The position numbers were made by a program, and so were the translations under genes. DNA of 64,000 nucleotides from Bdellovibrionales bacterium (GTDB lineage: Bacteria; Bdellovibrionota; Bdellovibrionia; Bdellovibrionales; UBA1609). Below, piece after piece: positions 499 through 64,000 of the stretch. The DNA lies in the NCBI GenBank assembly GCA_965199825.1, contig OZ241329.1:512001-576000 (forward strand). Reading direction: 5' to 3'. Within the stretch, counting starts at the first letter, position 1. Each line of letters begins with the position of its first letter. The notes below the pieces were generated by a model that saw nothing but the letters and a program-made list of their open reading frames with translations, had not been told where the DNA came from and searched no databases.

Positions 499-645
499 TC
501 GTGCCCGCTCCCAAGAAGATGATCGCGCTTGTAAACTCTGGCAGGACATTCAAATTCCTTTTAAGGATCGCATCTTATTTGTCGTGCCCGCTAGGTTTAG
601 ATTAAACAAGATTCTCACACCGCCGGAGTTATCATCGTGCCCGCT
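499..645 (+). repeat. Upstream motif array of HNH copy 1: three TCGTGCCCGCT
   Basis: Exact 11-mers starting at 499, 582 and 635, in gene orientation. Confidence 0.9.
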
Positions 646-860: not shown

Positions 861-866
861 ATGTTT

Positions 867-1679
867 ATGAATCACGAAATCATTCACTTCAACGCGATGA
901 AAGCTGCCGATCGACACCGCCAAACAGAATTGCAACTGCTTAATTCTTTAGAAGAGGTTTGGAAAAACAGAACCTATTATAAATACGGATGTCGCTCATT
1001 GTTTGACTATTCAGTTTCAAAACTTGGGCTTTCTGAAGAAGTCGCGAGCATTTTTAATAAGCTGGCCAAAAAATTTACCGAAGTGCCTGAGCTTAAAACT
1101 GCGATTGCTTCAGGAAAAGTTTCGGTTTCGAAAATCAATCGAATCTGTAGCGTGGTGGACGAGAACAATGCTGAGTATTGGCTCAAGGTTGCTGAAGGCT
1201 CTAAAAGAAATTTGGAAAAACAAATCGCATTGGCTCATCCCGAAAAAGCTATACCTGAGCGGGCACGATTGAAAGCGGTGGGTGAAACATTGAGGGTAGA
1301 AATTAAATTTTCTGTCACCGAAGAAAAATTTGAATCACTCAAACGTGCGCAAGATCTTTTAAGCCAAAAACTAAGGCGACCAGCGACTCTCGAAGATTTA
1401 GTGAACGAAGCAACCCAGCTCTTTTTGGAAAAGCACGATCCACTAAAAAAATCGTGCCCGCCAACCAAAACCGAAACACTCAGTACTGTTGTAAAAAGAA
1501 AAGTGCATCACCAGTATCAAAGCCAATGCACTCATAGAGACGAAAAAGGCAATCGATGTACAGAACAGCGATTTCTTGACATCCATCACATCATTCCGCA
1601 ATCCGAAGGCGGCACACACACTTTAGAAAACCTCACATTGTTGTGCGCGGGCCACCATCGTGCCCATCACGTTCATTAA
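867..1679 (+). CDS. HNH endonuclease with N-terminal helical (DUF222-like) domain, copy 1
   Basis: C-terminal CTH..C..LDIHHIIP..GG..ENL..LC.GHH HNH/Zn motif. Start moved from 861 to 867 because of SD spacing and alignment with the paralogs. Confidence 0.9.
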   Translation: MNHEIIHFNAMKAADRHRQTELQLLNSLEEVWKNRTYYKYGCRSLFDYSVSKLGLSEEVASIFNKLAKKFTEVPELKTAIASGKVSVSKINRICSVVDENNAEYWLKVAEGSKRNLEKQIALAHPEKAIPERARLKAVGETLRVEIKFSVTEEKFESLKRAQDLLSQKLRRPATLEDLVNEATQLFLEKHDPLKKSCPPTKTETLSTVVKRKVHHQYQSQCTHRDEKGNRCTEQRFLDIHHIIPQSEGGTHTLENLTLLCAGHHRAHHVH

Positions 1680-2954: not shown

Positions 2955-3345
2955 CGTCTTGGCGCTTGTCGCCTTTTTTCTTGCCGCGAGCCACACCGAG
3001 CTCAAGTTTTGCGATTCCTTTTTTAAAATACATTTTTAAGCAAACACAGGTCAGACCCTTTTCTTGAATATTGACCTGAAGATCTTTGAGTTGGTGGGCA
3101 TGCAATAAAATTTTGCGTAGGCGCTCGGGCTCATGATTGTTGTAGGACGATGCCATATAAACGCCGATATGGGCTTTTTGCAAAAACGCTTCGTGACCTT
3201 GAAAGGCCACATAGGCATCTTTGAGTTGGAGTTTGCCATCGCGAAGGGATTTGACTTCGCTCCCCGTGAGCACCAGGCCCGCCTCGAAAGTTTCGATGAT
3301 TTCAAAATCGAATCGAGCTTTTTTATTTTCGGCAATAATCTTCAC
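2896..3345 (-). CDS. smpB: SsrA-binding protein
   Basis: NKKARFDF, EAGLVLTGSEVKS, NHEPER.RK.LL, GKK..DKR. Confidence 0.97.
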   Translation of the reverse strand: MKIIAENKKARFDFEIIETFEAGLVLTGSEVKSLRDGKLQLKDAYVAFQGHEAFLQKAHIGVYMASSYNNHEPERLRKILLHAHQLKDLQVNIQEKGLTCVCLKMYFKKGIAKLELGVARGKKKGDKRQDVKTRDVNREIQRTLRKSKD

Positions 3346-4106
3346 AGAACCTCATTATAAAGCATCAGAAATTGATTGGGAGTCAGTGCTTCAGCCCGAA
3401 TATCTAATGAGATCTTGAGTTTGGCAAAGACCTCGTCAAGGGCGCCGTAGACATTTAAATTGTTGATTAATTTTTTGCGTCGATGTGAAAACGCGACCTT
3501 TGTGAATTTTAAAAATCCTGGGGGTAAAGTTGCAATTCGTGAAAACTTTAAAACTCGCGATGAGATATTCGGTGCAGGATAAAAACATTTAGGTGAAGCA
3601 TCCACCACCCGCTCAACCTTGAAGGCGAGCTGGGCGATGACCGAGAGCAAGCCATAATCTTCGGTGCGCGGTTTTGCCATAATTCTTTGGGCCACCTCTT
3701 TTTGAAACATCAAAATCATATGTGAGATCTCTGTTTGTAGAGCTTGGTCGATCACCAAACTTGCCGCAATTTGATAAGGAAGATTTGAAACCAAACACGC
3801 ATTTGGTTTTAAAAAATTCCAATCAATTTTAAGCGCATCCCCTTCAATCACCTCAAAGTTTTTTTGGCGCCAAAATTCTGAAAACTGGGCATCCATCTCG
3901 ATCAGCAAAACGGGTTGCGGTAATTTTTCGGTAATTGCGCCAAGGCCTGGACCAATCTCGATCAATTGCGAAAATGAGAGGCTACTGACCGCATCCACAA
4001 TTTTTTGGATCACCGCGGTCTCGATTAAAAAATTTTGTCCAAGACTGCGCTTAGGCGTGTGATTGAGTTCTTCGAGTCGGGCTTTTAGAATTTGAAGTTC
4101 GCTCAT
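3342..4106 (-). CDS. rsmA: 16S rRNA adenine dimethyltransferase
   Basis: KRSLGQNFL, EIGPGLG, SNLPY, MFQKEVA. Start at MSELQ (4106), coupled to the tsaD stop. Confidence 0.95.
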   Translation of the reverse strand: MSELQILKARLEELNHTPKRSLGQNFLIETAVIQKIVDAVSSLSFSQLIEIGPGLGAITEKLPQPVLLIEMDAQFSEFWRQKNFEVIEGDALKIDWNFLKPNACLVSNLPYQIAASLVIDQALQTEISHMILMFQKEVAQRIMAKPRTEDYGLLSVIAQLAFKVERVVDASPKCFYPAPNISSRVLKFSRIATLPPGFLKFTKVAFSHRRKKLINNLNVYGALDEVFAKLKISLDIRAEALTPNQFLMLYNEVL

Positions 4107-5131
4107 TGAAATTCCTGTGGCGAAAGGCGCGCCAGTGGCCCCAATTCTTGGGTCGAAAATTGGCCCATGGCCATACGCTGAGCTCCTACATAGGCCACCA
4201 TCGCCCCATTGTCGGTGCAATAGCGCGGAGGTGGTATAAACATTTTTTTATTACAGCTCGCGGCCCACTCTTGGGCTTTTAGTCTCAAGCGCGAGTTGGC
4301 CGAGACGCCCCCGGTGATCACCACAGACTCCGAGTCGCAAGCCGCCTTTGAGAGTTTTGAAATTAAACTGTCGACAATAGCCTCTTGAAAGCTTGCGCAA
4401 AGGTTTGCTTTTTGCGATTCAATTTCAATTGCGTTCATGCCTCCGAGTTGTCGAGCCGCCGCCGCTTTTAATCCAGAAAAACTAAAATCAAAACTTTTTG
4501 GGATGGCTCGTGGAAAATCAAAACTTTTTGGATTACCTTCTTTAGCCAAGCGATCCACCGCAATTCCACCCGGGAAACCGAGACCAAGCATTTTGGCAAA
4601 CTTATCAAAAGCCTCACCTGCGGCGTCATCAAGAGTGCGGCCGATGATTTTGTAGCGCCCTATACCTTCGCACACATAAAGCTGGGTGTGCCCGCCACTC
4701 ACAGCGAGAGCCACGTAAGGAAAGTGAAGCTCGGACTTTGCAAATTCAGAATCGAATAAAAATGGCGCAAGCAAATGGGCTTCGAGATGATTGATTCCTA
4801 AAAATGGTTTTTTGAAATTGAGTGCCAAAGTTTTTGCTGTTACCACACCCACCAATAACGAGCCCAAAAGGCCTGGTCGGTTAGTGACTGCAAGTGCATC
4901 AATATCCTCAAAATTAAGGTCGATCTTATTTAATGCGTGCTCGATCAAAGGCAATAAGGTCTCTGAGTGATTGCGGCTCGCAATCTCTGGCACCACGCCG
5001 CCAAAAGGTTGATGAGCCAAATCTTGATTGGCCGAAACCAGCACATGCACATAGCCTGTCATGTCGACCACGCTGACCGAAGTATCGTCACAGCTGGTCT
5101 CTATACCTAAAACTTTTTTTATTGTGGTCAC
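4103..5131 (-). CDS. tsaD: tRNA N6-threonylcarbamoyladenosine transferase
   Basis: LGIETSCDDT, GGVVPEIASR, NHLEAH, VSGGHT, DDAAGEAFDK, CTDNGAM. Confidence 0.97.
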   Translation of the reverse strand: MTTIKKVLGIETSCDDTSVSVVDMTGYVHVLVSANQDLAHQPFGGVVPEIASRNHSETLLPLIEHALNKIDLNFEDIDALAVTNRPGLLGSLLVGVVTAKTLALNFKKPFLGINHLEAHLLAPFLFDSEFAKSELHFPYVALAVSGGHTQLYVCEGIGRYKIIGRTLDDAAGEAFDKFAKMLGLGFPGGIAVDRLAKEGNPKSFDFPRAIPKSFDFSFSGLKAAAARQLGGMNAIEIESQKANLCASFQEAIVDSLISKLSKAACDSESVVITGGVSANSRLRLKAQEWAASCNKKMFIPPPRYCTDNGAMVAYVGAQRMAMGQFSTQELGPLARLSPQEFQ

Positions 5132-21051: not shown

Positions 21052-21885
21052 TTAAGCTAAAAGTTTCATTGCCATTGAGGGCGCTGCATTGGCCTGAGCT
21101 AAAGTCGAAACGCTGGCATTCATAAGAATGTTGTTGCGTGATAACTCAGCTGTGGTTGCTGCAACATCTGTGTCACGAATTCGTGAATTCGCAGCAGAGA
21201 AGTTCTCAATAGATGTACTTAAATGCTCGTTTGTTGATTGCAATCGGTTTTGCAAAGCTCCAAGATTCGCGCGGTAACCGTTCACTTGACCTTGAGATTT
21301 TTCAAGAGTTTCAAGAGCCGAACGTGCGCCTTCTTTAGTTGAGTAATCAAAACCATCGATGTTCAAAGATTCTGTAGTCGCAATCTGATCACCTGATTTA
21401 AAAGCGATACGATCTTTATCGGGATCGTTATTGATATCCACTTGGAATTCAAATTTTCCGCCAGTACCGTCTAGCAAATTTGCATTTCCATAACGAGTGC
21501 TCTTAGCAATACGTTGAACTTCGTCTTTTAATTGACCAACTTCTTTTTGGATAAAACCACGTTCTTGATCACCAACAGTATCAGATGCAGCTTGAACACC
21601 AAGTTCTCGCATACGAGTTAATATGTTGCTGATTTCTCCAAGACCACCTTCAGCAACCTGAACCATGGACACACCATCGTTCGCGTTACGTTGTGCTTGT
21701 TGATATCCACGGATGGTGGATTTTAATCCTTCACTGATCGACAATCCAGCTGCATCATCTGCTGCTTTTGTGATCCGGCTACCTGAAGCCAATTGTGCAA
21801 AGCTGGTTTGCAAATTTCTTTGCGAAACACCTAAAGATTGTTGAGCTGCGATCGAGGCTACGTTCGTTGCTATTCTGAGTCCCAT
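21052..21885 (-). CDS. fliC: Flagellin 1
   Basis: MGLRIATN, SGSRIT.AADDAAGL, RANLGALQNRL, SRIRDTD. Start at 21885 with SD AAGGA. Confidence 0.97.
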   Translation of the reverse strand: MGLRIATNVASIAAQQSLGVSQRNLQTSFAQLASGSRITKAADDAAGLSISEGLKSTIRGYQQAQRNANDGVSMVQVAEGGLGEISNILTRMRELGVQAASDTVGDQERGFIQKEVGQLKDEVQRIAKSTRYGNANLLDGTGGKFEFQVDINNDPDKDRIAFKSGDQIATTESLNIDGFDYSTKEGARSALETLEKSQGQVNGYRANLGALQNRLQSTNEHLSTSIENFSAANSRIRDTDVAATTAELSRNNILMNASVSTLAQANAAPSMAMKLLA

Positions 21886-22082
21886 GTTACGTTCCTTTAA
21901 GTTTGAGGGCGTAATACGCCCCCATAAAAAATTGCGATTCCCTTCGCTGATTAAACACATTGGAGCGGGTATCTGGGACGCATGCGATAAGGTGGTAACG
22001 ATCCAATTTCACGGCAGTCACACCGCGCAAAAGTCTCTCCCCTATCGAACTGTCTTTAAGACCAGCTCAACTTCTGACTAGC

Positions 22083-22109
22083 TTTTCGGCGGGGTCTGTA
22101 AAGGCTAAA
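22083..22109 (-). promoter_or_regulatory. Sigma28 (FliA) promoter TTTA-N15-GCCGAAAA
   Basis: Matches the TAAA-N15-GCCGATAA consensus, about 200 nt upstream of flagellin 1. Confidence 0.65.
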
Positions 22110-22278
22110 GTCTCGTCGAGCAAATCTAGACCATGGTCTGTAAACAACTGGACTTTAGTGTGGATATTTGGACCAAAAGCGAGTCAAGTCGGGCTAGACT
22201 GCTGGAAATTGGTCGGGTGTGGCTGATGATTTGGGGTGGAGGGGTTTGGCACTGCGGTACTGATTTACTTTGATCGCT

Positions 22279-22547
22279 AGGCACAATGGAGTCTTGTCGC
22301 GTCTGGGCACGATCATTTCTATCGGCATGGTGATGGGCAGGATGGTGTCTCACCTTGTTTGGGCACGATTTATCTTGTCGCTGAAGTGATGGGCACGATC
22401 ACTCCATTCTTTCGGCATGGTGATGGGCACAATTCATTCTGTTAGCTAAGTCATGGGCACGATAATGGCCTGCCTCGTCCGGGACGATGATGTCTCGCCT
22501 CTTTTGGGCACGATCACTCCATCCTCTCGGCAAAGTGGTGGGCACGA
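22279..22547 (-). repeat. Downstream degenerate tandem array of HNH copy 2 (about 10 motif units, period 25-34 bp)
   Basis: GGGCACGA or variants at 22279, 22305, 22335, 22361, 22391, 22425, 22455, ~22480, 22506, 22540. Confidence 0.9.
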
Positions 22548-23332
22548 TGATGTCCCGAACAAAAAAGAGTTAAGTTTTCTTCAGCATCCGATCCACCCTT
22601 CGATCTTGGTACTATATGATGAATATCTAAATGCCGCCGCTGGGTGCAGCGTATTCCATTTTCATTTACATAAGTGCATTGGCTGTGATGTTTGTGATGA
22701 ATCTTTCGCTTTACCGCCATTTTAGAAGCCGCTTTCTCTGGGCACGATTTCTGAAGCGGATCATTTTTCAACAACCACAAATCTACAGCCTCAGTCAGCA
22801 CATCTTCAATCGATGCCGCTCGTTTTAATTTCTGACTCATTAAATCTTGAGCACGTTGAAACGCTTTATGTTTTTCTTCGGTAAGCGAAAAAGTAATCTG
22901 CACGCGCTCGGTCGTGCCTACACTGCAGTACCTTGATTTTTCTTTCAGTGCTTTTTCGGAATGTGCCTTAGCAATTTCTTTTTCAAGTTGGCGTTTTGTG
23001 CCTTTTGCGATGTCGATCCATGAGGTCGCATTTTCCTCAGTGATCACCGAAACCAATCGGTTAGCTTTGGAAGCCGAGAGCTCACCAAGTTCCATTTCTT
23101 TTTTGAGTTGTGGCACTTCGGTAAATTTCTTGGCGATCTTATTGTAAATGCTCGCGAGCTCTTCGGACAATTTCAGTTGTGTCGTTGAATATTCAAATAA
23201 TGAACGACAGCCAAATTGATAATAACTTTTGTTGATCCAAACTTGCTCTAAGGCTTTTAGCAATTCGATTTCGGCTTTGCGATGAGAATCTGCGGCGCGG
23301 ACCGCATTCTTGTGAAGAGTGAGATGATCCAT
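22514..23332 (-). CDS. HNH endonuclease, copy 2
   Basis: Full-length paralog of 867..1679, LDIHH.VP...GG...ENL..FC.GHH. Confidence 0.9.
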   Translation of the reverse strand: MDHLTLHKNAVRAADSHRKAEIELLKALEQVWINKSYYQFGCRSLFEYSTTQLKLSEELASIYNKIAKKFTEVPQLKKEMELGELSASKANRLVSVITEENATSWIDIAKGTKRQLEKEIAKAHSEKALKEKSRYCSVGTTERVQITFSLTEEKHKAFQRAQDLMSQKLKRAASIEDVLTEAVDLWLLKNDPLQKSCPEKAASKMAVKRKIHHKHHSQCTYVNENGIRCTQRRHLDIHHIVPRSKGGSDAEENLTLFCSGHHRAHHFAERME

Positions 23333-23338
23333 AAATTA

Positions 23339-23364
23339 CTCCTGTTTAGAGCAGAAGTGTAACA
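23339..23364 (-). promoter_or_regulatory. Extended -10 (TGtTACACT) with SD-sequestering hairpin cttctg-ctctaaa-caggag
   Basis: Positional homolog of 836-860. Confidence 0.7.
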
Positions 23365-23565
23365 TGGGTTTTTGAAACTGCGATATAAGGTGGGCGCGAT
23401 CGGAATTAACATCTTCGATTTTTGGCATGTCTGTCGGCGCTAGCGACCGTTTGACAACTAAAGATAACAAAAAATGATTAATCTGCGGTTCAAAGCCAAA
23501 CACAGCCAAAAATTACCGCGATAAATTTGCGTCAATATTTAATTTGAGAAAACTAATTTAGCTGT

Positions 23566-23715
23566 GGGCAAGATCGTGAATAAAAAATGTCGTACTCCCA
23601 AAGTCATCATTTCTTTTTACTAAAAACTGCTATGGGCACGATCAGAAACTAAGAATATCGCAAACTAGAAATCCACCAGAAGACGTATACCATAGTTCGC
23701 AAAATCCGGGCACGA
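23566..23715 (-). repeat. Upstream motif array of HNH copy 2
   Basis: GGGCAAGA at 23566, GGGCACGA at 23634 and 23708, plus GGGCGCGA at 23392. Confidence 0.8.
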
Positions 23716-23766
23716 TCGCAATCAAGAACAATACCGCCACTACCATCGCTTATAAACAACAAAAAT

Positions 23767-24444
23767 CTAAAGAAACGTCGCTGTAGTTGGGCATGTCACA
23801 ATCGAAACCATTCCACGAATATGACCAATGTCATCGCGGATATAATTCCAATCCCATTTGACGTCGAGAGCGGCATTGTTGGCGGCGCGGATACGCATGT
23901 AATAAGGCATTGCTTGTTGGCCGGAGAGAATCATCGTTCTGATAAACGATTGAAGTTTAATTCCTTCGGCGGGATCAAATAAATAATCCCATAAGAATTT
24001 TGGCGTGCGTAGGTCGTTTGCGGTTAAGCCAATGGTGTCTAAAGTTTTTTTGTTTGCAAAACAAATTTCGCCATTGGTTTTGCTTGCGAGAAATCCGACA
24101 TGGATCAAATCTAGGAAGGCATGGGTGCAGCCTAAATCCAAAGTTTCGAGCGATGTCTTGTCGCGATCGCGAAGCAAGTAACAAGGCGGAGTATTAAAAT
24201 GCCTGGCAAAAGTGCGAATGGTTGAGGCTTTGATATCGATTTGACCGGCCTCAATTTTTTGTAAATGACGATGGCTTAATCCAACTGCATTTGCTAAATC
24301 CACTTGGCGTTCACGTTTTCTTTGACGAAACTGCTTAATCCAGCTCGCTATGATGCCTGGAAGTAGACGTTCGGAATCGAAGAGTTGATCAAAGTCTTTA
24401 GTTTTCAAGCCATTTTTTTTGCCTCTCAATAAACAAAATGACAA
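23767..24444 (-). CDS. XRE-family HTH regulator with C-terminal PAS domain
   Basis: R...Q.DLA..VGLS.RHLQKIEAG HTH, then G.I.FAN...G...DL and D..G.I.G PAS features. Confidence 0.8.
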   Translation of the reverse strand: MSFCLLRGKKNGLKTKDFDQLFDSERLLPGIIASWIKQFRQRKRERQVDLANAVGLSHRHLQKIEAGQIDIKASTIRTFARHFNTPPCYLLRDRDKTSLETLDLGCTHAFLDLIHVGFLASKTNGEICFANKKTLDTIGLTANDLRTPKFLWDYLFDPAEGIKLQSFIRTMILSGQQAMPYYMRIRAANNAALDVKWDWNYIRDDIGHIRGMVSIVTCPTTATFL

Positions 24445-24486
24445 GAGATCTTCTCAATACTCGAGGAAAACGCCATGTATTGCCGC

Positions 24487-24521
24487 AAAAAAAACCCTGG
24501 GCGCAGTAAAGCCACCCAGGG
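24487..24521 (-). terminator. Rho-independent terminator of flagellin 2
   Basis: ccctggg/cccaggg stem followed by T8 on the minus strand. Confidence 0.8.
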
Positions 24522-24564
24522 CGGGCTTTTGAGATCATGTGGGCCACGATCCCAAACTAAATAA

Positions 24565-25392
24565 TTATTGAAGTAAACGAAGTGCTGCGGCTCCGTTGGA
24601 ATTTGCCTGCGCCAATACACCAATGGAAGCTTGGTGCAAAATATTGGCTGAAGCCGCCTCGGCAGATTCGTACGCAATGTCGGTATCGCTAATCCGTGAT
24701 TTTGCAGCAGAGAGATTTTCGTACTGCACATCAAGGTTACTTGTTGTTGATTGCAGTCGACTTTGTACCGCACCAAAATCAGCGCGCATTTTTCCTAATT
24801 TATCCAACGCATCGTCAACCGAGTCGAGTGTGTCGCGAGCACCTGATTTTGAATCGAGCGAAATCGATGAAATTCCTAAAGCCGAATTGGTTGCGTCTGC
24901 TTTCACGCTGCTCTTGATAATGTTCTCATCACCACCGTAAGGGCCCACGTGATATTCTAAAGCCGATCCTGAGCCATCGAGTAATTTTTGATTTCCAAAT
25001 CGGGTGGATTTAGCGATTCGCTGTGACTCATCGATCAACTGTTTTGCTTCTTGATTTAAAAATCCGCGCTCTTTATCTGAGACCGTATCACTTGCGGATT
25101 GAACACCAAGTTCACGCAGTCGAATAAGAATATTATTAATTTCATTCAAGCCCCCTTCAGAGGTTTGAATCAATGATTGAGCATTGTAGGCGTTATTGCG
25201 TGCTTGCTTTACTCCCACAATTTGTCCGCGCAAATTTTCTGATATCGACAAACCGGCAGCATCATCTGATGCCTTTACGATTCGTGATCCCGAAGCAAGA
25301 GCTTCTTGTGAATGCTCTAAGCGCTCCTGACTTTTGCCAAGTTGTCTCTGCGCACTGATCGATGCCAGATTCGTATTAATTCTTAAGCCCAT
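24565..25392 (-). CDS. fliC: Flagellin 2
   Basis: MGLRINTN, SDDAAGL, RADFGAVQSRL, SRISDTD. Confidence 0.97.
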   Translation of the reverse strand: MGLRINTNLASISAQRQLGKSQERLEHSQEALASGSRIVKASDDAAGLSISENLRGQIVGVKQARNNAYNAQSLIQTSEGGLNEINNILIRLRELGVQSASDTVSDKERGFLNQEAKQLIDESQRIAKSTRFGNQKLLDGSGSALEYHVGPYGGDENIIKSSVKADATNSALGISSISLDSKSGARDTLDSVDDALDKLGKMRADFGAVQSRLQSTTSNLDVQYENLSAAKSRISDTDIAYESAEAASANILHQASIGVLAQANSNGAAALRLLQ

Positions 25393-52073: not shown

Positions 52074-52141
52074 GCGCGGGTTTGCGCATTGCCTGCTTTT
52101 CAGTTCTGAGCTCAATTTGTTAAGATGTAGCATACCTTCGT

Positions 52142-52951
52142 TCACTGCCTCTGGTGATGGGCACGATGGTGCCCCGAACACAGCAAAGTGAGATTCTCCA
52201 AAGTGTCAGGTCCACCCAATGACTTCGGAATTATGTGATGAATATCTAAATGCCGTCGCGCCGAACACCGTTCGCCATTTTCATCAATATGGGTGCACTG
52301 TCCTCCGTGCTGCTGATGAAGCTGACGTTTGATTGTAAGCTTGGATACACTCTGAGGCGGGCACGATTTTTTAATCGGATCTAATTTTTCCAACAATAAT
52401 TGTGTTGCCTGATCATGAACATCTTGAATAGTTGCAGCCCGTTTAAGTTTTTGGCTCAGCAAATCTTGTGCGCGTTGAATGTCGCTATATTTTTCTTCGC
52501 TCACCGCATAAGAAATTTTAATCAAAGTTGTTTCACCAACTTGTTTGTATTGCGCAAGCTCAGGAATCGCCGTCTCAGGTTTGACCTTTGCAATTTCTTT
52601 TTCAAGATTCCGTTTTGTGGTTTTGGCTTTAGCAAACCAGTCGAGAGCATTTTCTTGAGTGATCACACTCACAAGCCGATTTGCTTTTGACACCGAGAGC
52701 TCGCCCGACGCAATTTGGGTTTTAAGAGCTGGAACTTCGGTAAATTTTTTTGCGAGCTTATTAAAGATGCTCGCAAGTTCTTCTGACATTTTTAATTTTT
52801 TTGTTGAGTATTCAAAAAGCGAATTGCAATCAAACTTATAATAACTTTTGTTGCGCCACACTTGCTCAAGCGCATTGAGCAAAGCCATTTCGGTAGCTCG
52901 GTGGTTGGCGGCAGCAATCACTGCCTCGTTATGAATTTTTTGATGGCTCAT
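52142..52951 (-). CDS. HNH endonuclease, copy 3
   Basis: Full-length paralog, LDIHHIIP..GG.D..ENL..LCSGHH. Confidence 0.9.
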   Translation of the reverse strand: MSHQKIHNEAVIAAANHRATEMALLNALEQVWRNKSYYKFDCNSLFEYSTKKLKMSEELASIFNKLAKKFTEVPALKTQIASGELSVSKANRLVSVITQENALDWFAKAKTTKRNLEKEIAKVKPETAIPELAQYKQVGETTLIKISYAVSEEKYSDIQRAQDLLSQKLKRAATIQDVHDQATQLLLEKLDPIKKSCPPQSVSKLTIKRQLHQQHGGQCTHIDENGERCSARRHLDIHHIIPKSLGGPDTLENLTLLCSGHHRAHHQRQ

Positions 52952-53178: not shown

Positions 53179-53407
53179 GTGGGCACGATCATTTTAGATC
53201 AGAAACTACGGTGGGCACGATCATTTTTAAATCAGAGATCTAACGAAAACTCCGAAGGTGTTTGGTTTTTGTCTAGGGTTAAGCGGTGGGTAAACCTAAA
53301 ACAAAACTGGGCACGACAATTTCTAGATTAAAATTCTAACCAAATTTCCGACGGTGTTTGGTTTTTATTTAGGTTAAAACTTGATCGAGGCTAAAGAGCG
53401 GGCACGA
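53179..53407 (-). repeat. Upstream motif array of HNH copy 3, with 32-bp and ~91-96-bp duplications
   Basis: GGGCACGA at 53181, 53213, 53309 and 53400, with duplicated flanks (tccga.ggtgtttggttttt). Confidence 0.9.
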
Positions 53408-63424: not shown

Positions 63425-63651
63425 GGGCACGATTTCTTCTCGAGCAAAAAAGAGTGTAAACTGATTGTTTCTGCAATCACGACACAACGTTAACCTTGTC
63501 TGGGCACGATCACTCCATTTTGTCGATGACGTGATGGGCTTGATGGTGTCTCAGCTCGTCCCTTCACGATCACTCCATTCTGTCGGCACGAAGATGTCTC
63601 GCCTTGTCTGGTTACGATCACTGAATTCTATCGCTGAAGTGATGGGCACGA
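63425..63651 (-). repeat. Downstream degenerate array of HNH copy 4
   Basis: GGGCACGA or variants at 63425, 63502, 63536, 63562, 63584, 63610, 63644, same unit types as 22279-22547. Confidence 0.9.
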
Positions 63652-64000
63652 TGATGACCCGAACAAAAAAGAGTCAGATTGTCTTCAGTATCTGTTCCGC
63701 CCTTTGATTTTGGAATTATATGATGAATATCTAAATGCCGCCGCTGGGTGCAGCGTATTCCATTTTCATCTACATAAGTGCATTGGCTGTGATGTTTGTG
63801 ATGAATCTTTCGCTTTACCGCCATTTTAGAAGCCGCTTTTTCTGGGCACGATTTTTTGAGTGGATCATGTTTGGACAACCACAAATCTACAGCCTCAGTC
63901 AGCACATCTTCAATCGATGCCGCTCGTTTTAATTTCTGACTCATTAAATCTTGAGCACGTTGAAACGCTTTATGCTTTTCTTCGGTGAGCGAAAAAGTGA
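63618..64000 (-). CDS. HNH endonuclease, copy 4 (5' part beyond the window)
   Basis: Near-identical to the 3' half of copy 2 (about 25 mismatches in ~350 nt by eye), open to the window end. Confidence 0.9.
   Translation of the reverse strand, partial: TFSLTEEKHKAFQRAQDLMSQKLKRAASIEDVLTEAVDLWLSKHDPLKKSCPEKAASKMAVKRKIHHKHHSQCTYVDENGIRCTQRRHLDIHHIIPKSKGGTDTEDNLTLFCSGHHRAHHFSDRIQ

Follow-up and report, generated by a model that had tools for sequence, protein, structure and literature searches.

Why should one 8-mer be kept letter for letter, in two reading frames, inside the coding sequence of each of four genes? The stretch of DNA analysed here (the window, 64,000 nt) belongs to a 2.84-Mb genome of Bdellovibrionota (G000), and the initial annotation had noticed that in four of its genes the word falls once on codons for K-S-C-P and once on codons for H-R-A-H. 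From this it had proposed that selection acts on the nucleotide sequence, and that the HNH nuclease domain lying between the two sites is a cassette that can be bound, swapped or excised. All eight positions were exact (1452/1658 on the plus strand; 22740/22540, 52359/52159 and 63844/63644 on the minus strand), and the spacings of 206, 200, 200 and 200 bp, the codon contexts and the intervening HNH domain were confirmed. The four open reading frames are paralogous, each encoding about 270 aa with the HNH domain at the C-terminus: copy 1 (861..1679, plus strand, 272 aa), copy 2 (22514..23332, minus strand), copy 3 (52142..52951, minus strand) and copy 4, a close relative of copy 2 whose 3′ part (63618..64000, minus strand) lies in the window and which continues past its end. 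The window holds 30 copies of the 8-mer against 1.25 expected, a number reached in 0 of 100 shuffles. Beyond the eight already noted there are thus 22 more, among them copies upstream of the genes and a third in-gene slot, at codons for E-R-A-R (1261..1268 in copy 1, minus strand). The genome as a whole contains 28 family loci, one of which is a relic.

We codon-aligned the 27 paralogs of G000 other than the relic (median 4-fold divergence 0.60), and the absence of synonymous change at the motif, first seen in four genes, held across the family. Over 113 columns of 4- or 6-fold degenerate codons, mean codon heterozygosity was about 0.62; the only two columns with zero heterozygosity were the motif Ser (TCG in 15 of 15) and the motif Arg (CGT in 26 of 26), and the seven lowest columns were all motif codons. 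The Cys and His codons of the motif are less telling, because 11 of 107 2-fold columns are also invariant. This freezing of the motif codons, which spans four in-gene slots with differing peptide contexts, supports selection on the nucleotide sequence. Constancy of the sites themselves was uneven. The H-R-A-H site (1658..1665 in copy 1, plus strand), which overlaps codons for HNH metal-ligand His residues and forms the right end of the unit described below, is exact in 25 of 26 HNH-bearing paralogs, and E-R-A-R, on the strand opposite to the gene, in 19 of 27; the K-S-C-P site in the linker (1452..1459, plus strand) is exact in only 14 of 27. In 11 others the word is found reversed, on the opposite strand and 20 bp further on, so that a direct-repeat bracket around the HNH domain is present in only about half of the family. 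The two linker slots are mutually exclusive, except in one recombinant-looking copy and the relic, where both are present with one mismatch, and the ancestral linker therefore probably carried the two halves of an interrupted palindrome. A reverse-then-forward pair of sites lies 191 bp apart (E-R-A-R to linker) in all paralogs of the K-S-C-P group and 192 bp apart (linker to H-R-A-H), with different slots, in the other group; this spacing could be chance or a looping distance. At 841269 and 1248726 of G000 contig C1, one copy has an in-frame 162-bp deletion, in the DNA-binding domain and between short repeats, and the other an internal stop; the sites are kept in both.

Outside the genes, the distribution of the word follows the family closely. 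No other 8-mer in G000 is over-represented to the same degree (522 copies against 55 expected); the extended consensus of the word is TT[GA]TCGTGCCC[GA]C, and its single-base variants occur at background frequency. The 522 copies divide into 72 within family genes, 160 flanking them, 216 in other clusters and 74 singles, the last close to the 55 expected by chance. All 27 alignable paralogs have at least one copy upstream, and 151 of 152 upstream copies share the strand of the gene. In the window, copy 1 has three (499, 582 and 635; 499..642, plus strand), copy 2 two (23634..23715, minus strand) and copy 3 four (53181..53407, minus strand). Upstream sites lie 140–350 bp 5′ of the genes, adjoining a conserved TTGAC and an extended −10-like word. 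Such a placement favours the main rival to the explanation developed below, namely that the sites are autoregulatory operators only, comparable to KorB or lac O1/O2 loops, that the genes spread by ordinary duplication and conversion, and that arrays of sites are slippage products titrating a toxic nuclease.

Arrays are found both next to genes and far from them. Directly 3′ of copy 2 (22280..22513, minus strand) there are about nine units of 25–34 bp, each beginning with the site (five exactly), and several units resemble the gene's own 3′ end; a degenerate array follows copy 4 (63425..63617, minus strand), with exact sites at 63502 and 63425. Elsewhere the clusters consist chiefly of ten groups between genes; nine of the ten are tandem arrays with 11–39 copies. 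A few clusters fall in repetitive host genes. In the orphan arrays, which have no family gene nearby, the word recurs with a period of 16–20 bp. A profile search of G000 with nhmmer returned no additional element remnants, so these arrays are not obviously decayed copies. The elements of G000 show no clear orientation bias relative to neighbouring genes; copy 2 lies between two flagellin genes and adjoins a helix-turn-helix gene (window 21052-25392).

Several general readings of the distribution were tried and rejected. Helical phasing does not account for the arrays, since 221 of 260 short spacings are 16–20 bp and not 21–22. Against an uptake sequence, Chi or KOPS, single copies are close to background and leading-strand bias is absent (43 versus 42). 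As to a CRISPR-like capture of DNA, 19 of 71 inter-site segments have non-local matches, and those listed lie beside other sites or in repetitive host genes. Two further words were encountered in the course of this work. G[TC]G[AN]ACGAAGGTA is over-represented on G000 C1 as 107 dispersed single copies on both strands, with no replichore bias and with 12 copies within 300 bp of the 8-mer; one example directly follows copy 3 (window ~52125-52140, minus strand). The other, ACACC-N-CCGGA, is found in the longer array spacers of C1 (e.g. at 246215, 808687, 1575773 and 2565745), and 10 of its 16 copies are within 300 bp of the 8-mer.

Homologs in other genomes suggest what the word may be. They were found in 21 of 41 sampled genomes, often in multiple copies (from 0 to over 20 per genome), and those named here come from Pseudobdellovibrionaceae and Bdellovibrionota; at thresholds of E≤0.001 and 1e-30 the family comprises 13,460 and 539 clusters, respectively, and the phage and plasmid collections searched yielded no homolog. 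The homologs mostly lack the G000 8-mer, which around the listed loci is absent save for scattered single matches and the linkers of one genome (G152), and many have a palindrome of their own. Among 78 usable loci (duplicates, loci with short flanks and loci with no recognisable HNH motif having been dropped), 14 carry a perfect 16-bp palindrome in the linker; two control windows placed in these genes gave 0 and 0. The linker palindrome was matched upstream, with at most two mismatches, at 14 of the 78 loci, in 11 of 38 genomes or records, with controls of 0, 0 and 1 of 468 cross-genome pairs; the other 64 loci failed this upstream-plus-linker test. An independent version of the test scored 27 of 84, compared with 0 of 420 in shuffles. 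In the complete genome G297, 13 of 15 sites fall within 1.6 kb of its three homologs (control, 0), and G254 has 63 sites against 0 for a control pattern. G152 keeps a 9-mer in five linkers, with no exact upstream copy at the three loci checked and no genome-wide excess (21 versus 21). A non-coding module of ~700 bp lying 3′ of one homolog (locus L114, G316 C1:1079300-1084500, at 3300-4300) recurs often in its genome, and a 56-bp perfect palindrome at this locus contains the linker site.

Several of the relatives' sites have an 8+8 shape with CCC-GGG or CAC-GTG at the centre, the centres reported for NBS and parS, respectively, in the available text of PMC7383237. We infer that the G000 8-mer is one half of a family-type 16-bp palindrome, recognised on double-stranded DNA. 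The two relatives closest to G000 in the recognition helix have half-sites ending in GTGCCC, as the G000 word itself does, and in GTCCC, and site similarity correlated with the recognition helix at rho 0.56 and with the whole protein at 0.40, in a set of 17 hand-picked, related loci that includes one mis-called site and is uncorrected for kinship. These data also bear on the idea that the word is a host-factor site, or a REP-like signal in RNA or in a single-strand hairpin, that the element merely exploits. Palindromic sites in relatives and arrays that exist without a gene would fit such a signal, but the G000 word is asymmetric and stands on both strands within one gene, many of the relatives' palindromes have no loop, and the word differs among genomes within one order, following the element's own recognition helix. 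Nor did RNA analysis help: Rfam had no match in the window, and folding upstream of the 27 copies gave no signal (mean z −0.2). We consider a borrowed host signal very improbable, and a guide RNA was rejected on the same RNA results.

The protein is predicted to consist of three parts: a ParB/KorB-like DNA-binding domain, a ribbon-helix-helix and an HNH domain. In a structure model of the copy 1 protein, built from a 128-row alignment (pLDDT 95.9), aa ~18-127 (912..1241, plus strand) best match the DNA-binding domains of KorB, ParB and Spo0J, with Z of 5.9–6.9 and an rmsd of ~3.3 over 94–98 aa, all below the Z 8 mark; by VIA-align the values are Z 6.9 and rmsd 3.3 over 96 residues for KorB 8qa8, Z 6.9 for ParB 6s6h and Z 5.9 for Spo0J 1vz0. 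Foldseek gave no match at E≤0.001, a PDB sequence search found only HNH domains and designed helical repeats, and the HTH_ParB profile matches 2 of 128 family members. With middling Z-scores and no significant Foldseek match, assignment of this domain to the ParB/KorB-type helix-turn-helix is likely, not proven. That KorB, a repressor, is among the top matches again suits the operator-only explanation. The N-terminal CTPase domain of ParB is absent: the match starts at aa 16–19, all 272 residues are accounted for, and the Pfam family of the ParB N-domain has no match in the 128 members.

Residues ~143–192 (1287..1436, plus strand) are predicted to form a ribbon-helix-helix dimerisation domain. 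In a first, weaker model aa 146–200 matched ribbon-helix-helix proteins (7wj0, Z 5.5), and copy 2 has a ParG match below cut-off. A strand-swapped homodimer was predicted with a score of 0.72 against 0.00 for the best control, passing a mark that 20 of 30 solved pairs and 1 of 23 single chains reach; contacts agreed between runs at 91% or more with pLDDT of at least 79, and the interface consists of the ribbon strand and the N-terminal helix. The pass may reflect memory of, or likeness to, solved ribbon-helix-helix dimers. The HNH nuclease domain (1467..1676, plus strand) matches PF01844 above cut-off, as do 26 family loci of G000, and aa 203–272 match HNH nucleases by structure. Its H-x-H-H, N and C-x-x-H-H-x-x-H residues are kept, and the beta-beta-alpha-metal motif is intact, with His, Asn and His invariant in 128 of 128 members. 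Profile searches detected no transposase, recombinase or HUH domain, HNH families being the sole matches. The initial suggestion that the 8-mer can be bound survives as a prediction, drawn from the frozen codons, the relatives' palindromes and the ParB/KorB-like fold: probably, the word is bound by the element's own protein.

Where, then, does the unit begin and end? In the nine closest pairs of G000 copies (86.7–96.0% identity, four clades), homology begins 0–19 bp from an upstream site, and in seven of the nine it stops 11–26 bp past the start of the H-R-A-H site; of the remaining pairs, one shares a downstream array, and in the other one copy stops at the linker site. The ends are direct copies of the site, and in several copies the tail after H-R-A-H-H is built of flanking DNA. 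By analogy with these pairs, the last upstream 8-mer of copy 1 (635) would be the left end of its copied unit. In three genomes, similarity between copies that are 92–96% identical vanishes completely a few bases beyond the terminal sites, and many copy-copy alignments in G254 and G297 stop at palindromes; in G254, segments between palindromes are shared in either orientation. In older pairs of G000 the promoter region alone is conserved. What the sites bound is accordingly a whole element of ~1 kb, and not the HNH domain that the annotation had placed between them. Six pair alignments showed no target-site duplication. Relatives are only 66–71% alike in DNA, too diverged for an empty-site comparison at the base level, and no congener of G000 is among the genomes searched.

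Two reservations apply to these ends. The right end also roughly coincides with the end of the open reading frame, and gene conversion between resident copies could give equally sharp ends. One conversion tract is seen between copies 876421 and 904293, which are identical over ~520 bp and differ upstream, as expected if sites are operators only and copies spread by duplication and conversion. That explanation, however, leaves unexplained the abrupt loss of similarity on both sides of the terminal sites in three genomes, and the site-seeded arrays 3′ of genes and far from any copy; we regard it as unlikely, if by some way the most serious of the rivals. We lean, by a little, towards a selfish nuclease element that is bounded by its own sites and copies itself. 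The unit, with a copy of the 8-mer at either end, would encode a protein that dimerises and binds the word through its ParB/KorB-like domain, the flexibly linked dimer taking half-sites singly or in pairs. The HNH domain would nick DNA near a bound site and in this way initiate copying of the unit into new places between genes, host recombination or re-synthesis would repair the nicks and thereby define the ends, and the same repair may seed the tandem arrays of 16–25 bp units and occasional exchanges at the linker. Probably the protein also acts through the sites upstream of and within its own gene to repress that gene, which is potentially toxic.

Exchange at the linker is the part of the cassette proposal that retains something. 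Across pairs of G000 paralogs, identities in the HNH segment correlate with those of the other segments at Spearman 0.49 and 0.33, compared with 0.64 between the other segments and 0.69 between the two halves of the N-domain; rate differences could contribute to this lower congruence. One copy switches parent at aa 199–200 (chi2 35.9; 6844 triplets scanned), and in one HNH-less copy similarity to its sister stops just after the linker site. Swapping of the HNH domain thus has some slight backing, and exchange may plausibly occur near the linker from time to time. For programmed excision there is no support. The flank of the HNH-less copy differs from the H-R-A-H flank, so that it has no site-to-site junction, and none of the 28 loci has a deletion from site to site. 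Deletions of ~200 bp and circles, which the annotation's cassette would leave, were sought over copies 3 and 4 in the contigs of three runs, which drop rare variants, and in the reads of one; of 34 joints 15 were listed, and none of these linked site to site or pointed to a circle or an excision, while copy 3 is intact in the source-like run. One RNA run gave 9 reads, under 90% alike. Moreover, 11 of 27 copies carry the linker site on the opposite strand, recent copies have all three segments in common, and most relatives that possess a site have its second copy beyond the stop codon. An HNH cassette excised or swapped between direct repeats therefore has very little probability. A protein from another sample, P0013, is an apparent chimera, its N-part corresponding to G000 copy 475587 and its C-part to 2566089 with the crossover near the E-R-A-R region; it looks like a natural recombinant or an assembly chimera.

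The element was compared with several known systems. As far as the available descriptions go, ParB-parS, Noc-NBS and KorB with its operator resemble it in the predicted helix-turn-helix fold, the predicted dimer and the 16-bp 8+8 palindromes of its relatives with CCC-GGG or CAC-GTG; the element differs in having no N-terminal CTPase, an HNH fusion, multiple copies and sites inside its own reading frame, and in G000 the site is just an asymmetric half, arranged in direct arrays. RAYT-REP/REPIN systems, in the descriptions at hand, likewise combine a nuclease gene with cognate short repeats adjoining it and gene-free repeat clusters elsewhere. Their nuclease is a HUH tyrosine transposase, typically encoded by a single-copy gene, and their repeats are extragenic stem-loops, whereas the element has an HNH domain, ~27 copies (28 loci) and 72 sites within reading frames that are asymmetric and need no stem-loop. 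Free-standing HNH homing endonucleases join a sequence-specific DNA-binding domain to an HNH domain and spread selfishly, cutting alleles that lack the element and sparing their own locus. In contrast, if the 8-mer is the target, each alignable copy of the element holds 3–6 or more intact sites. IscB/OMEGA and HEARO share a related HNH domain (IscB, Z 7.0), but the NCBIfam profile of IscB scores 35 bits against a cut-off of 175, over the HNH part only, and the element has no RuvC domain and no RNA partner in Rfam or upstream folding. Unlike insertion sequences (DDE, HUH or serine), it has no transposase or recombinase domain. Features that define RAYT, insertion sequences, homing endonucleases, IscB and ParB proper are thus missing from the element; by analogy, it would work most like a RAYT-REP system built of ParB and HNH parts.

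By sequence, the element is a distant relative of the DUF222/REP13E12 proteins (13E12 repeat), which are also multi-copy genes with an N-domain and an HNH domain. DUF222 (PF02720) has no match in the proteins of the window; it matches 3 of 128 family members at E≤0.01, is carried by a distant homolog (P0048) and makes up 21% of a neighbour cluster in the Atlas. The parts available of a 2026 preprint (PMC13061034) describe REP13E12 loci as gene-conversion hotspots without defined function and mention no cognate site. In the largely open-access literature covered, including parts of PMC10589994 and PMC3592412, there was no description of this system or of the family's cognate sites, and the wider system is apparently undescribed. 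Three features are particular to G000: the change to a half-site that is asymmetric, the capture of this half-site in codons of the catalytic site, and the tandem arrays. Since a probable target site is visible in each gene's own linker, the function of a family that reaches DUF222/REP13E12 becomes testable. If binding and nicking prove true, nature has supplied in this family a collection of protein-guided nucleases of 270 aa, whose specificities can be read and which share a ParB-like recognition code. Should mobility prove true, the family represents a way of transposing, and of forming bacterial minisatellites, that lies outside the systems compared here. If only autoregulation is true, it is an unusual case of protein and operator sharing the same codons, those of the catalytic site included. 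Tentatively, and with rather less confidence than we give to mobility itself, we propose a new class of bacterial mobile element: ~1 kb, without a transposase, combining a ParB-type domain with an HNH nickase, its site written into its ends and its own codons, site and helix co-diversifying, and the same enzyme making minisatellite-like arrays. The large HNH families related to DUF222 would thereby gain a function.

The copies are unevenly placed on the chromosome. Twenty of the 28 lie within 500 kb of dnaA (p 1.5e-4), and none between 1.88 and 2.54 Mb, around the terminus. Together with the ParB-like domain, this clustering might be taken to indicate a domesticated parS-like system organising the origin region, but the ParB CTPase domain is absent, the nuclease is intact, the distribution across genomes is patchy, and gene dosage near the origin could itself produce the bias; such a role seems to us the least probable of all those considered. 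For the proposed self-copying element, other genomes give some indication of turnover. At one orthologous junction between convergent genes in genus g46, both flanks are present in 13 genomes; 6 of these carry a family member and 7 are empty, and the occupants belong to three lineages that are 21–30% alike. Four occupants are 43–56% alike, so some copies are long-term residents. In two strains of Peredibacter, according to the portion of PMC13147790 available, there are 10 and 13 HNH genes, counted as HNH genes only, of which 6 are at shared sites.
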